A DNA stretch of 64,000 nucleotides from Escherichia coli (GTDB lineage Bacteria > Pseudomonadota > Gammaproteobacteria > Enterobacterales > Enterobacteriaceae): assembly GCF_041248615.1 (NCBI RefSeq), contig NZ_CP158426.1; one strand, 5' to 3'. This document shows, in pieces, positions 10,828-63,699 of this stretch. Each line of letters begins with the position of its first letter. The first letter of the stretch is position 1. The notes beneath the pieces were generated by a model. That model searched no databases, was not told where the DNA came from, and was given only the letters and a program-made list of their open reading frames with translations. A program made the translations under genes and the position numbers.

Positions 10828-11285
10828 ATATAAAAATTATGTATTCAACTCGCTGATATTTAATCATAAATATTATTTTCTTGTCTTTGTATTAGCCAAA
10901 ATCAACTTTATTCAACCGTTTGATTTCATTGACGTTCGTTTTTATTTTGGGGAAAGATTTTCTCTACCATTTATATCAAAATTACAAGTCTACATTTTAT
11001 TAACATCTCAATACATGTGTGGCCTTGCAAGCCATTGCGAGGCCTTATGTGTCTCAGTTTTGTCCCGCCTTGTATTACGACTTGCATAGCCAATGAAGAT
11101 AAACGTGACGACAAACAAAGCAGCTGTCTTCTTTTCTTTCACACTTTCCCCACTCAGCAGCATGCATACCTTCTACTATAACTGTAGTGAATGTCTATTA
11201 TGAGCGAACTGCGGACATCGTGGAGACAACATGCTGCTGGGTGCGGATATCCCATGGCACGTCATATCGCTCGCCGTATTACTTG

Positions 11286-12056
11286 TTATTTTTTTGAAAC
11301 GAGAAGTTGATACAATTCCTTCAGGGATAAGGCTAATAACTCATTCTTCCTGATGAGATCTTTATCAGCGTCTATACCCTCTGCGCATGATTCATTTAAA
11401 TAGTTCAGTGTTTCCTGATCATCATCCAAGCATTCATAGCTGCCTGAATAAAATTCATCGCAACTTGCTTTGTTATTTTTGTCAATGTAACCAATGCATT
11501 GAATCACGCCTTTAACAACTTTAGCAGCAGAAAAAACAAAGTAACTGCAGTCATTTATATAGCGTTCAATATCAAAAATCATATAAAAATAGTGCATAGA
11601 GTGTTTTTCAATTTCAAACTCACTTGAAATCATAGCTATTTCACATTCAAGGTCTTTCAGACCATCTAACATTATGGAAAGTTTACATTGTTTTTCTTGC
11701 ACAGTTTCATACTTAAATGACTCTCTCCCCTTTGCCCTGACATTTATTCTTTCTTCAATTGCATAAATATAAGCAGGATATACACGCGACCACACTTGGT
11801 TTATTTTTAGGATTAACCGGCCTCTTTTCAGCCTTTCTTTTGTAGCTATAAATTCTGCATATAGCGCAGCATCCTCTTCGCACCATACATCAACTTTTCG
11901 TTTATAACCCAACTTTAATTCTTTCCCTACGCATTCAGGAAACAAAGGATCAAAGTCCTTTAAGTATTCAAACTCACTTAGATAGAATCCTGTCTCATAA
12001 CGATTAAATAATTTCCTAAACTCTTTCCCACTTAAGGTTTTCATTGTATCAATCAC
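11286..12056 (-). CDS. Hypothetical protein, AT-rich orphan at prophage end
   Basis: 256-aa ORF with no recognisable motif; strongly AT-rich versus flanks; between attR and sit operon. Confidence 0.5.
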   Translation of the reverse strand: MIDTMKTLSGKEFRKLFNRYETGFYLSEFEYLKDFDPLFPECVGKELKLGYKRKVDVWCEEDAALYAEFIATKERLKRGRLILKINQVWSRVYPAYIYAIEERINVRAKGRESFKYETVQEKQCKLSIMLDGLKDLECEIAMISSEFEIEKHSMHYFYMIFDIERYINDCSYFVFSAAKVVKGVIQCIGYIDKNNKASCDEFYSGSYECLDDDQETLNYLNESCAEGIDADKDLIRKNELLALSLKELYQLLVSKK

Positions 12057-12648
12057 TCTGTTTTCATAAAAGCAAAGTCAACAAGATAAAACAATAAAAA
12101 CTCTTACACAACCAGCTGATGTTTTTAAAATAGAGGATAATATAAGACAAGCATAACCTCGTTCACTTCAATGCTACTCCTATCGTTCTTTTGCGTCACA
12201 GAGCGCCTGCCGGACAACTGCATCATAGACCAAACGGAACTGCTTCCGTCGATTAATCAGATGGCAGCGCATAAACACGCTCAACAACCCGTTTGACTGC
12301 TTCAATTTTAAGCTCTTCGGAATAACGCTTACCGTGTAAGTCTCCCTGCAAAACGAGCTATCAACTTTTAAGGAGTCTCTGGCCCCCCTGCTTCCGCTCC
12401 TGGCACACAGCAGCCCTAGAGACAGTGGAGTAAAGTCATGGAGGCTCGGTGGGGAGAGGTGCAAATCCTCCCATACAAAAAATACGAAAATCAGTAACGG
12501 CTAGAAATCATTCAATACATGCACTCTCGAAATTGCATCAGCCAACCGCAAAACGTTATTTCAAAGCCTACTAGCTGCCTTACTTTTTTCCTCAATAACG
12601 CGTCGCCAGCCGGAAACAACCTAATCCCTGTTTTGGGCCTCAAAACCG

Positions 12649-12710
12649 CTAATGATAATCATTTTCATTTTGTATAGGTTGTGCTATAAAACATAGCCGT
12701 TGCTATGTTT
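12649..12710 (+). promoter_or_regulatory. sitA promoter region with Fur-box-like and MntR-box-like sites
   Basis: ctaatgataatcattttcatt (Fur-like, 12649-12669) and palindrome aaacatagccgttgctatgttt (MntR-like, 12688-12710) just upstream of sitA. Confidence 0.5.
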
Positions 12711-12742
12711 GTTCTAATTTTGCTCACTATAGGTACTAAATT

Positions 12743-13657
12743 ATGCACTCGATAAAAAAAGTAACCATGCTCTTGGGGGGCCTCGCACTCACCTGCTCGA
12801 TCGCATTTCAGGCAAGTGCAACTGAAAAATTCAAGGTCATTACAACATTTACCATCATCGCGGATATGGCCAAAAACGTGGCGGGAGATGCTGCAGAAGT
12901 CTCATCCATAACCAAGCCTGGTGCAGAAATTCATGAGTATCAGCCTACCCCTGGCGATATTAAACGTGCGCAGGGGGCACAACTGATTCTCGCCAATGGT
13001 ATGAATCTGGAATTGTGGTTCCAACGCTTTTACCAGCATCTCAATGGGGTTCCAGAAGTAATTGTCTCTTCGGGTGTGACGCCTGTAGGGATCACCGAAG
13101 GACCCTATGAGGGCAAACCTAACCCCCATGCATGGATGTCGCCAGATAATGCTCTGATTTACGTCGATAATATTCGTGATGCGTTGATAAAATACGATCC
13201 GGCAAATGCACAAACCTACCAACGCAATGCCGATACTTATAAAGCCAAGATTACCCAAACCCTTGCCCCCCTGCGTAAGCAGATTACGGAACTCCCTGAG
13301 AATCAGCGATGGATGGTCACCAGTGAAGGGGCTTTTTCTTATCTCGCACGCGATTTGGGGCTAAAAGAGCTTTATCTGTGGCCGATTAATGCCGATCAAC
13401 AAGGAACACCGCAGCAGGTACGTAAGGTTGTTGATATAGTTAAGAAAAATCATATCCCGGCAGTCTTTAGCGAGAGTACGATTTCCGATAAACCAGCGCG
13501 TCAGGTTGCGCGTGAAACCGGCGCACACTACGGCGGTGTGCTCTATGTCGATTCCCTGAGCACAGAAAACGGCCCGGTACCGACGTATATCGACCTTCTT
13601 AAGGTTACTACCAGTACGCTGGTACAGGGAATTAAAGCTGGGAAAAGGGAGAAATAA
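12743..13657 (+). CDS. sitA: Mn/Fe ABC transporter periplasmic binding protein SitA
   Basis: 304 aa with signal peptide; metal-binding lipoprotein-9 family sequence; first gene of four-gene ABC operon. Confidence 0.85.
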
Positions 13658-14484
13658 TGATGCAATCTGCAGGCATTGTCGTTAATGATGTTACTGTCAC
13701 CTGGCGTAACGGGCACACAGCACTGCGCGATGCATCCTTCACAGTACCAAGTGGATCTATTGCCGCTCTGGTTGGGGTAAACGGTTCCGGAAAATCGACG
13801 TTGTTTAAAGCGATTATGGGATTTGTGCGTCTGACCAGCGGAAAGATATCTGTTCTGGGTATTCCCACGCGACAGGCGTTACAGAAAAACCTGGTTGCCT
13901 ACGTCCCTCAGTCAGAAGATGTTGACTGGTCATTTCCTGTACTGGTGGAAGATGTGGTGATGATGGGCCGCTATGGGCATATGGGTATGTTGCGTATCGC
14001 CAAAAAGAGGGATCGTCAAATTGTCACCGATGCGCTGGAACGTGTCGATATGGTGAATTTTCGCCATCGACAAATCGGCGAGCTTTCCGGTGGACAAAAG
14101 AAACGCGTCTTTCTGGCGAGAGCGATTGCACAGCAGGGTGATGTGATCCTGCTGGATGAACCTTTTACTGGCGTTGATGTGAAAACCGAAGCCAAAATCA
14201 TCAGCCTGTTGAGGGAGTTACGCGCGGAAGGCAAAACGATGCTTGTCTCAACACACAATCTCGGATCCGTCACGACATTTTGCGATTATACGGTCATGGT
14301 CAAAGGCACCGTCCTGGCAAGCGGGCCGACAGACACCACTTTTACAGCCGAGAACCTAGAGCTGGCTTTTAGCGGCGTACTGCGCCATGTCACACTTAAC
14401 GGCTCGGAAGAAAGCATTATTACTGACGATGAACGCCCTTTTGTGGCTCATCGACCGTCAGCGGTGCAGAGGGAAGAAAGATGA
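13657..14484 (+). CDS. sitB: Mn/Fe ABC transporter ATP-binding protein SitB
   Basis: 275 aa; Walker [13 protein letters not shown] signature LSGGQKKR, Walker B ILLDEP. Confidence 0.85.
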
Positions 14485-62335: not shown

Positions 62336-62345
62336 AAAATAGCCA

Positions 62346-62382
62346 GTTTTGGGGAAGGGTTTTGGGGAAAGTTTTGGGGAAG
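62346..62382. repeat. Three tandem ~12-bp repeats between int and icd, candidate arm-type sites
   Basis: gttttggggaag / ggttttggggaaa / gttttggggaag; related ttttggggaaag at 10945-10956 at the other prophage end. Confidence 0.6.
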
Positions 62383-62403
62383 ATTTTACATCATCATAAA
62401 ACA

Positions 62404-62426
62404 ACGGGCGTGTTATACGCCCGTTA
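62404..62426 (-). terminator. icd rho-independent terminator
   Basis: Hairpin aacgggcgtgttatacgcccgtt just downstream of icd stop (62449). Confidence 0.6.
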
Positions 62427-62448
62427 CAATATTTAACACATGTAGTGA

Positions 62449-63699
62449 TTACATATTCTTGATGATCGCATCACCAAACTCTGAACATTTCAGCAGCTTA
62501 GCGCCTTCCATCAGACGTTCGAAGTCATAGGTTACGGTCTTCGCATTGATTGCGCCTTCCATACCTTTAACAATCAGGTCTGCGGCTTCAGTCCAGCCCA
62601 TATGGCGCAGCATCATCTCAGCGGAGAGAATAATAGAGCCAGGGTTAACTTTGTCCTGACCGGCATATTTCGGCGCAGTACCGTGGGTGGCTTCAAACAG
62701 GGCGCATTCGTCACCGATGTTTGCGCCTGGGGCGATACCGATACCGCCGACCTGTGCAGCCAGAGCGTCAGAAATGTAGTCACCGTTCAGGTTCATACAG
62801 GCGATAACATCATATTCAGCCGGACGCAGCAGGATCTGTTGCAGGAATGCATCAGCAATCACATCTTTAATGACGATCTCTTTGCCGGTATTCGGGTTTT
62901 TAACTTTCAGCCACGGGCCGCCGTCGATCAGTTCACCGCCAAACTCTTCACGCGCCAGCTGGTAGCCCCAGTCTTTAAACGCGCCTTCGGTGAACTTCAT
63001 GATGTTGCCTTTGTGCACCAGGGTCACAGAGTCACGATCGTTAGCAATTGCGTATTCGATCGCGGCACGGACCAGACGTTTGGTGCCTTCTTCAGAACAC
63101 GGCTTAATACCGATACCGCAATGTTCCGGGAAGCGAATTTTCTTCACGCCCATCTCTTCACGCAGGAATTTAATCACTTTCTCGGCGTCGGCAGAGTCAG
63201 CTTTCCATTCGATACCCGCATAAATGTCTTCCGAGTTTTCACGGAAGATAACCATATCGGTCAGTTCAGGATGTTTAACCGGGCTTGGGGTGCCCTGATA
63301 GTAACGTACCGGACGCAGGCAGATGTAGAGATCCAGTTCCTGGCGCAGGGCAACGTTCAGAGAACGAATACCGCCACCAACCGGAGTGGTCAGAGGGCCT
63401 TTAATGGCAACGCGATATTCACGAATCAGATCAAGGGTTTCAGCAGGCAGCCAGACATCCTGACCATAAACCTGTGTGGATTTTTCACCGGTGTAAATTT
63501 CCATCCAGGAGATTTTACGCTCGCCTTTATAGGCTTTCTCGACTGCAGCGTCGACCACTTTCAGCATGGCTGGGGTTACATCTACACCGATTCCATCACC
63601 TTCAATGTAAGGGATAATCGGATTTTCAGGAACGTTGAGTTTGCCGTTTTGCAGGGTGATCTTCTTGCCTTGTGCCGGAACAACTACTTTACTTTCCAT
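62449..63699 (-). CDS. icd: NADP-dependent isocitrate dehydrogenase
   Basis: 416 aa, [38 protein letters not shown]...; last ~55 codons supplied by prophage side of att. Confidence 0.95.

Follow-up and report, generated by a model that had tools for sequence, protein, structure and literature searches.

The DNA analysed here, hereafter called the window, is a stretch of 64,000 nucleotides from the Escherichia coli contig NZ_CP158426.1 (RefSeq assembly GCF_041248615.1). Positions 10826-62612 of it are occupied by an element of 51,787 bp, which is very probably a temperate lambdoid siphovirus prophage of the phage 21/ev017 lineage (genus Jouyvirus), integrated by a tyrosine integrase of the phage 21 type into the 3' end of the icd gene. 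Its identity as a prophage of the phage 21 lineage is essentially certain; it is a relative of ev017 and phage 21, not a derivative of lambda. A preliminary description of the window had reported an apparently intact, mosaic lambda-like prophage at positions 10828-62616, in the icd site that is used by the e14 element of K-12. The site has been borne out by a duplication of the icd 3' end, and the coordinates turned out to be 2-4 bp off those measured by us. A lambdoid mosaic of complete appearance stands as well, but the lineage is that of phage 21 and ev017, and 38% of the bases are identical to lambda. The same description made no mention of the sitABCD cargo, of the insertion sequence IS1414 in sitD, of the phage 21/Jouyvirus kind of the element or of its size at the packaging limit.

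At the level of whole genomes, 84.5% of the prophage bases are identical to ev017, 68-74% to phage 21 and 38% to lambda. By the convention of the International Committee on Taxonomy of Viruses, members of one genus share at least 70% nucleotide similarity across the whole genome; the prophage exceeds this value with respect to ev017 and possesses a head, a terminase and a cosB of the phage 21 type. The reference records of ev017 and phage 21 are both assigned to Jouyvirus. On the other hand, its 84.5% identity falls short of the 95% threshold for the species Jouyvirus ev017, and 38% of bases against the 70% threshold, together with head proteins only 34-67% identical, keeps it outside the genus Lambdavirus. 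It is a member of Jouyvirus that stays below the species threshold with respect to every isolate seen, and a mosaic of an already well-known prophage type. The lambdoid character is evident from the gene map, which is collinear with those of lambda, phage 21 and ev017 when the order of modules is compared (cos, head, tail, att, int/xis, recombination, N, cI/cro, cII, O/P, nin, Q, lysis), and from the regulatory circuitry, which comprises an N protein (PF25694), boxA and boxB elements in both nutR and nutL, a Q protein (PF06530) and divergent cI and cro genes.

Searches of a phage collection revealed 99.9-100% nucleotide identity of positions 32000-40000 to phage 21 (M81255, OL657228), ev017, PhiR63_2, PhiR57_1, 4C10, 1W and 3W. 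The left arm, including sitABCD, stf and the b-region open reading frames (ORFs), is covered to 83-91% at 96-97% identity by the isolates that match in the head genes, and 76% of the right arm is covered by ev017 at 99.5% identity. Over the 14.2 kb from the right side of cos to ral (39889-54100), just four differences from ev017 were found outside a patch around Rz and bor, which is discussed below. At the protein level, Nu1, W, B, D, E, FI, FII, Z, Stf, the two ORFs that follow stf, SitA-C, R, NinB, Xis, a TonB-fragment moron and a b-region ORF are 100% identical to their counterparts in ev017, phage 21 or both, and A and C are 100% identical to one of these phages and 99.7-99.8% to the other. 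Identity to ev017 alone (with phage 21 at 86-99% or divergent) is characteristic of S, U, Q, the nin genes, ren, P, O, cII, cro, cI, the gene pair in the rex slot, N, sieB and Int. In BLASTN comparisons, lambda matches the segment from the 3' end of FII to the N-terminus of J (94% nucleotide identity), the segment comprising the 3' end of cII, O, P, ren and NinB (97%), Rz/Rz1 and bor (100%), the C-terminal domain of cI (93%) and, at 66-69%, the genes from Nu1 to E. The lambda-like parts are limited to the tail shaft, O/P/ren/NinB, Rz/Rz1-bor and the C-terminal domain of cI. Among 5,426 complete E. coli genomes, 224 possess at least 80% of the left junction and sit region, and the full right arm is found in this strain only.

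The boundaries are defined by an imperfect duplication of 183 bp, which comprises the last ~165 bp of icd and ~20 bp downstream. The two copies (attL, 10643-10825, and attR, 62430-62612) exhibit a mean column identity of 84% across the aligned junction stretches, and the homology breaks off abruptly at 10825/62612. The left copy is the displaced bacterial 3' end of icd, found as a pseudogene at 10662-10829 and annotated in RefSeq as a partial isocitrate dehydrogenase; the right copy is supplied by the phage and corresponds to the ICDH-like pseudogene located beside attP in the phage 21 genome. The icd gene itself (62449-63699) is an intact ORF of 416 codons and a hybrid, with the 5' part bacterial and the 3' end of phage origin; the host gene remains intact because the prophage carries a replacement for the end it displaces. 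As had been stated, int and xis abut the att junction: xis (60967-61203) and int (61193-62335), both on the plus strand, sit directly inside attR, and their DNA, together with attP, is identical to that of ev017. Xis is 100% and Int 98.9% identical to the phage 21 proteins.

The shared attachment site and a published description of sitABCD as a pathogenicity island (PMC7545054) could be taken to speak for an element of the e14 family, or for a non-phage pathogenicity island ('PAI sit') with mere phage remnants. We give such an origin next to no credence. Those e14 genes that were compared by sequence, namely intE, xisE and ymfK, encode proteins with 60% identity to Int, 36% to Xis and 35% (over 139 amino acids) to cI; no gene name is common to the annotations of the two elements, and the window contains a full set of virion, lysis and replication genes that is collinear with isolated phages. 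Membership of the e14 family is refuted by the e14 annotation and by these protein comparisons. The element is indeed far larger than K-12 e14, as had been noted, with 51,787 bp against an annotated 15,204 bp at the same site.

The genes for head formation and packaging (FII, FI, E, D, C/Nu3, B, W, A and Nu1; 31719-39683, minus strand) are of the phage 21 type, with products 99.7-100% identical to those of phage 21 and ev017. The earlier claim that these genes are close to lambda does not hold, as the amino acid identity to lambda is 53% for Nu1, 67% for A, 53% for W, 61% for B, 53% for C, 58% for D, 62% for E, 34% for FI and 65% for FII. The adjacent cos region (39684-39901, minus strand) comprises cosB, cosN and cosQ. 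The lambda cosN sequence GGGCGGCGACCT occurs exactly once, at 39860-39871, and the interval 39600-40100 is 100% identical to both ends of the phage 21 genome, which are annotated with cosB R1-R3, I1, cosN and cosQ. The phage 21 origin of the head, cos and int modules sets the packaging specificity and the competition for the att site, and it is masked by 'lambda-like' calls made from gene order alone.

The tail genes I, K, L, M, H, T/G, V, U and Z (24276-31707, minus strand) encode proteins with 76-100% amino acid identity to lambda and 71-100% to phage 21/ev017, and in this case the likeness to lambda that had been proposed is genuine, given the 94% nucleotide identity from Z to the N-terminus of J. 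They are full length apart from small differences in I (215 versus 223 amino acids) and H (849 versus 853 amino acids). Lambda has the same G-T slippery site, GGGAAAG (here 29569-29575), in the same context, and a GT fusion product of 279 amino acids is predicted. The replication genes likewise agree with the preliminary description: O, P and ren (47530-49414, minus strand) are 99%, 97% and 96% identical to lambda, respectively, and 100% identical to ev017. An origin of replication is present within O (~48930-49066), with four iterons identical to those of lambda and an AT-rich stretch, so that both cos and ori are found as claimed.

The immunity core (49447-50871) is 100% identical to ev017 and comprises cII and cro on the minus strand, nutR (49829-49874), OR, and cI on the plus strand. 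It had been characterized as non-lambda, and in fact cro and N have no lambda match, cII is 43% identical and the N-terminal domain of cI is unrelated. The immunity would, however, be best described as hybrid, since the C-terminal domain of cI is that of lambda except for one residue and retains the self-cleavage motifs VQAGMF (with the Ala-Gly pair), GNSM (Ser) and FKKL (Lys), whereas cro, N and the N-terminal domain of cI are shared with ev017. The identity of cI to its phage 21 counterpart is 35%. Further to the right are pL/OL, nutL (52511-52554) and the N gene (52654-52926), together spanning 52380-52926 on the plus strand, with N matching the Pfam N_peptide family with E=1.5e-32. The boxA and boxB elements of nutR and nutL were read directly from the sequence; a scan with the boxA consensus found nothing useful. 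The neighbouring genes sieB (on the minus strand), ral (98% identical to lambda), cIII (PF08134) and kil are found at 52943-54436.

The late antiterminator Q (44800-45183, minus strand) had been assigned to an '82/QuuD type', of which the QuuD part stands and the reference to phage 82 does not. The protein is 96% identical to QuuD of the K-12 prophage DLP12, 100% to Q of ev017 and 81-84% to Q of 933W and other Stx phages, and it matches PF06530 with E=6.7e-54 and 181.3 bits (cut-off 26). According to a published Pfam mapping, PF06530 represents the Q21 family and PF06323 the Q82 family (PMC9388147). PF06530 is the sole Pfam match and PF06323 was not hit, which led us to reject the Q82 assignment; Q21 itself also matches PF06530, at only 32% BLASTP identity to the prophage Q over 88 amino acids. 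No record of phage 82 Q was present among 420 tblastn matches in the phage collection, and no link between QuuD and phage 82 was found in the literature.

The lysis cassette (41770-42940, minus strand) comprises the holin gene S (42725-42940), the endolysin gene R (42228-42725), Rz (41770-42231) and a lipoprotein ORF, Rz1 (41829-42011), nested inside Rz. In agreement with the phage-21-type lysis proposed earlier, S belongs to PF04971, is 86% identical to S21 and 100% to EssD of DLP12, and begins with MKSMDK, which includes the dual start MKSM, while R is 100% identical to R21 and has the Gly/Ala-rich hydrophobic N-terminus of a signal-anchor-release (SAR) endolysin. The cassette therefore exhibits the features of the pinholin/SAR-endolysin type of phage 21, for which membrane release is predicted. 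Between Q and S, on the opposite (plus) strand, lies a moron encoding an NmpC/OmpC-like porin (43529-44611; Pfam Porin_1, E=1.9e-151), 100% identical to the porin of ev017. Because the porin gene is placed in this orientation within the block from rusA to bor, late transcription must run antisense through it, as in ev017. A scan of the Q-S interval for promoters and terminators yielded fewer promoter-like sites than in shuffled sequences.

Taken together, these parts suggest how the prophage may work. Lysogeny would be held by the hybrid cI, with its private DNA-binding domain and cleavable lambda C-terminal domain, until DNA damage leads to RecA-stimulated self-cleavage of the repressor. N acting at nutL and nutR would then open early transcription, Int and Xis would excise the element at the icd repeats, and replication by O and P would start at the lambda-type ori. 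The late operon would be switched on by the QuuD-type Q, the phage-21-specific terminase would cut at cos, and lysis would be brought about by the pinholin, the SAR endolysin and the Rz/Rz1 spanins. In the meantime the lysogen would gain the morons, i.e. sitABC(D), bor, the porin, the TonB fragment, sieB and the two-gene cassette in the rex slot.

The expectation that the essential modules are full length has been upheld: annotated coding sequences (CDSs) of the prophage are free of internal stops, the essential genes are entire, and a check for frameshift and nonsense mutations found none in the translated CDSs. Most essential gene products match those of plaque-forming phages exactly. Since the regulatory and catalytic parts are identical to those of plaque-forming relatives, induction by the SOS response, excision at icd and replication are likely, and DNA-damaging antibiotics could consequently mobilise the prophage. 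Induction of Jouyvirus prophages by a DNA-damaging bacteriocin has been reported (bioRxiv 10.64898/2026.05.26.727859). In view of the genome size and the variants in the tail tip, we are less confident that infectious particles are produced; we regard this as somewhat more probable than not, with a yield that may be reduced.

Several observations weigh against a fully functional phage of the known kind. With 51,787 bp the genome exceeds those of all isolates seen that share its head genes (42.9-50.1 kb), and it amounts to 106.8% of the lambda length; Feiss et al., in 1977, reportedly found that the yield drops above ~105% of that length. It also lies at the top of the packaging range of the lambda capsid, given as 38-52 kb (PMC9764419). 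The I protein is a 215-residue variant, 8 residues shorter than, and 76% identical to, its counterparts in lambda and phage 21. The central tail fibre J (20307-24215, minus strand) comprises 1302 residues and is longer than its counterparts in lambda (1132) and in phage 21 and ev017 (1160). Its residues 1-836 are 93% identical to lambda J and its C-terminal, receptor-binding part is phage-21-like, and between the Ig/FN3 domains and the tip-fibre domain the stalk has been expanded in frame by ~140 extra residues (roughly 836-1012). A longer central fibre would be predicted from this expansion. Part of the expansion is a tandem repeat of 174 bp (21229-21554), which corresponds to a duplication of 58 amino acids with copies 90% identical. 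No isolated phage in the collection has the expanded J, the best match being the 1160-residue form with 94% coverage. Finally, the early-left accessory region (54521-60827, plus strand) encodes RecT, Gp157, an ea22-like protein, a DUF551 protein, ASCH and DUF4222 proteins and others; with cIII and kil, the genes for RecT, Gp157 and the ea22-like and DUF551 proteins occupy 54100-60265 in place of exo/bet/gam. Piece by piece, the region matches HK140, mEpX1, Kapi1 and 611R6 at 96-98% identity, but no phage in the collection covers at least 80% of the combination, and the whole was not found in any isolate. Early-left and recombination functions are dispensable for the lytic growth of lambda.

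One may ask if the prophage, despite its full complement of genes, is functionally defective, being able to excise and replicate but yielding few or no infectious virions, possibly due to a genome enlarged by IS1414 beyond efficient packaging, or to an expanded J or variant I that does not assemble or adsorb. A genome of 51,787 bp, compared with the 38-52 kb range and with ~50.1 kb for the largest related isolates, the J architecture absent from isolated phages in the collection and the divergent I would all fit such a defect. Nevertheless, 51.8 kb is still within the quoted capsid range, the J and I ORFs are uninterrupted, the Pfam domains found in J span both ends of the protein, and the remaining essential proteins are the same as in plaque-forming phages. 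Moreover, the exact J protein recurs in ~48 Escherichia entries, which fits a maintained gene better than a one-off accident. We consider a defect of this kind unlikely, although it is the most serious competitor of an active Jouyvirus prophage.

Two genes of the prophage are wrongly called defective in RefSeq. The side tail fibre gene stf (18188-20254, minus strand), which was split into a CDS and a pseudogene, is a single uninterrupted ORF of 688 codons whose product is 100% identical over 686 amino acids to Stf of phage 21/ev017, and the split is an annotation artefact. Similarly, the DUF551 ORF (59098-60285), part of which is listed as a pseudogene, is uninterrupted, and its exact 395-residue product is encoded on 27 contigs. 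Tools that judge intactness from annotation would be misled by these calls. A third candidate for a defect, a 29-codon remnant of a DUF1364 gene observed in the nin region (45765-45854), was also rejected: ev017 has the same DNA there, which identifies the remnant as an old deletion scar and not as damage specific to this prophage. The nin region itself (45269-47456, minus strand) contains ylcG, rusA, this remnant, and genes for NinX, NinE, a DNA adenine methyltransferase and NinB, with proteins 100% identical to ev017.

The segment around Rz and bor is exceptional. The bor lipoprotein gene (41445-41738, plus strand) is the lambda allele, with a product 100% identical to lambda Bor, and the whole stretch of 844 bp at 41388-42231, which comprises Rz, Rz1, bor and flanking DNA, is 100% identical to lambda 45966-46809. 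The window is otherwise identical to the chromosome of E. coli NRZ14408 (NZ_LT599825.1, 3075672-3139671): all 43 differences between them fall in this patch (41395-42227), where the RefSeq NRZ14408 assembly carries the iss allele and differs in length by 3 bp. Only three other complete genomes have the lambda-identical patch, namely NZ_CP158446 (CFT073) and NZ_CP158443 (ATCC 25922) at 100%, and NZ_CP158445 (536) at 99.6%. Their accession numbers are adjacent, and in other assemblies of CFT073 and ATCC 25922 the iss allele is found instead, 96.9% identical to the window. The patch coincides exactly with the region of homology between the prophage and lambda. An amplicon from the right end of lambda is a common spike-in for long-read sequencing. 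The most economical reading is that the patch is probably an assembly artefact, in which lambda control DNA was drawn into the polishing of the consensus; a real gene conversion is the alternative. The earlier description of Rz/Rz1 as lambda-like holds either way, as the native allele is 97% identical in Rz.

A segment that looks technically altered, being 100% lambda in sequence, might raise the suspicion that the whole mosaic is an assembly chimera of two lambdoid prophages residing in the strain. This is highly improbable in view of the NRZ14408 assembly in RefSeq, which agrees in structure with the window at every base of the remaining 63 kb, and of the icd junctions, which form a clean duplication.

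The principal cargo is the sit operon, which encodes an iron/manganese ABC transporter. The genes sitA, sitB and sitC and the 5' part of sitD (12743-15862, plus strand) are annotated in RefSeq, and their products are 99.7-100% identical to the Sit proteins of phage 21/ev017. The 3' part of sitD follows at 17177-17515 on the plus strand, according to the RefSeq annotation and the comparison with the same phages. The two parts are separated by IS1414, a member of the IS256 family (1,315 bp and an 8-bp target duplication; 15863-17177, plus strand), with a transposase annotated at 15935-17143 and terminal inverted repeats of 30 nucleotides (15863-15892 and 17148-17177). In phage 21 and ev017 the DNA flanking the element abuts with an overlap of 8 bp. 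The insertion adds 1.3 kb and raises the genome to 51.8 kb. Given the expectation that both permease subunits are needed, the strain probably lacks an active Sit transporter, its sitD being split, i.e. a virulence-associated function has probably been knocked out in a multidrug-resistant clinical isolate.

The rex slot is occupied by a two-gene cassette (50911-52248, plus strand) that encodes a protein of 185 amino acids and a DUF1828 protein of 250 amino acids and ends with a terminator hairpin. The two genes (50911-52217) replace rexA-rexB exactly, with the lambda homology resuming at the cI stop codon and at the terminator distal to rexB. The 185-residue protein exhibits a weak match to DUF6978, and the pair has a single trace in defence databases, a distant match to proteins A and B of the untested PADLOC candidate PDC-M24 (E=5e-4 and 5e-10). 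Sequence searches of the PDB and of NCBIfam gave no match for the pair, and a search of the literature on DUF1828 came back empty. We tentatively suggest, with some doubt, that the pair could act as an uncharacterised anti-phage (exclusion) system, which the lysogen would express on one transcript with cI. Since ev017 and related phages possess the cassette too, it is not special to this window.

Of the remaining small genes, a small ORF and a TonB C-terminal-domain moron (40246-40961, minus strand; TIGR01352, tonB_Cterm) are 100% identical to phage 21. Within this interval, the ORF at 40635-40961 encodes 108 amino acids that constitute the TonB C-terminal domain alone, an arrangement conserved in phage 21. 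Downstream of stf, two ORFs of 97 and 92 amino acids (17607-18191, minus strand) are 100% identical to phage 21 and ev017, and one of them has been annotated in phage 21 as a putative membrane protein. In low-GC DNA of the b-region, an ORF of 256 amino acids (11286-12056, minus strand; PHROG 20520) is 100% identical to CPT_21_31 of phage 21 and gp29 of ev017, and a Pfam search with it gave no match. The tRNA genes of the kind located 3' of Q in phage 21 were looked for in the prophage and none were found. Outside the prophage, the window begins within a large gene (1-2631) for an autotransporter adhesin of the ECIAI39_1904 family, which stands upstream of the ymg/ycgZ/bluF/bluR cluster.

Comparison with named systems places the prophage among well-described relatives. 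With lambda (NC_001416) it shares the gene order, cosN, the G-T frameshift site, the ori iterons, Rz/Rz1/bor, ral and the C-terminal domain of cI, while lambda differs in the holin, the endolysin, Q, N, cro, the N-terminal domain of cI, int, the att site and the recombination genes. K-12 e14 has in common with it the attB in icd, the displaced icd 3' pseudogene and the neighbours iraM, ymgK/L and ycgX, but is an element of 15.2 kb with a P2-like or Mu-like tail remnant, lit, mcrA and pin. In DLP12 of K-12, rusA, ylcG, quuD, an nmpC-type porin on the opposite strand, essD, rrrD, rzpD/rzoD and bor follow in the same order with 96-100% amino acid identity; DLP12, however, is a decayed remnant at argU that lacks virion genes and has nmpC cut by IS5, whereas here the block (the 43529-45768 region) is embedded in a complete genome.

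Phage 21 (OL657228; head M81255) shares with the prophage the icd att site and the phage-borne icd 3' end, sitABCD, stf, O/P, cos (100%), head and terminase proteins (99.8-100%), the R21 endolysin and an S21-type holin (86%). It differs in having its own immunity (cI 35%), its own N, Q21 (32% to the prophage Q), two tRNA genes 3' of Q instead of the porin, exo/bet/gam and a genome of 42.9 kb. The closest relative, ev017 (Jouyvirus ev017, NC_049948/LR597643), is a temperate coliphage from a collection of infant-gut coliphages. It shares the head, terminase, cos, sitABCD, stf, Q, porin, lysis and nin genes, O/P, the immunity region including the rex-slot cassette, N, sieB and int/xis/attP, with most proteins 100% identical, and differs in an intact sitD, a J of 1160 residues, a different I, exo/bet/gam where the prophage has RecT/Gp157 and neighbouring genes (54100-60265), and a genome of 50,126 bp versus 51,787 bp.

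Prophages of this type are anything but rare. Lambda-like phages carrying sitABCD were the commonest temperate coliphages cultured from infant stools in one study, and 70% of the lambda-like coliphages isolated from that source possess these genes (PMC6969025). Phage-21-like prophages that occupy icd and bring sitABCD, bor and a porin occur widely across E. coli. Their activity is established and they are major carriers of sitABCD, so the finding is real but ordinary: such prophages are common and well described. A good example is Perceval of the adherent-invasive E. coli strain LF82 (OV696612), a lambda-like prophage with sitABCD that matches 81% of the left arm with 96.8% identity and differs in the immunity and early regions and in having no insertion sequence in sitD. 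Experiments have shown that in LF82 Perceval is active and makes virions, and that its lysogen expresses sit, the porin and the TonB-fragment moron (PMC9928086).

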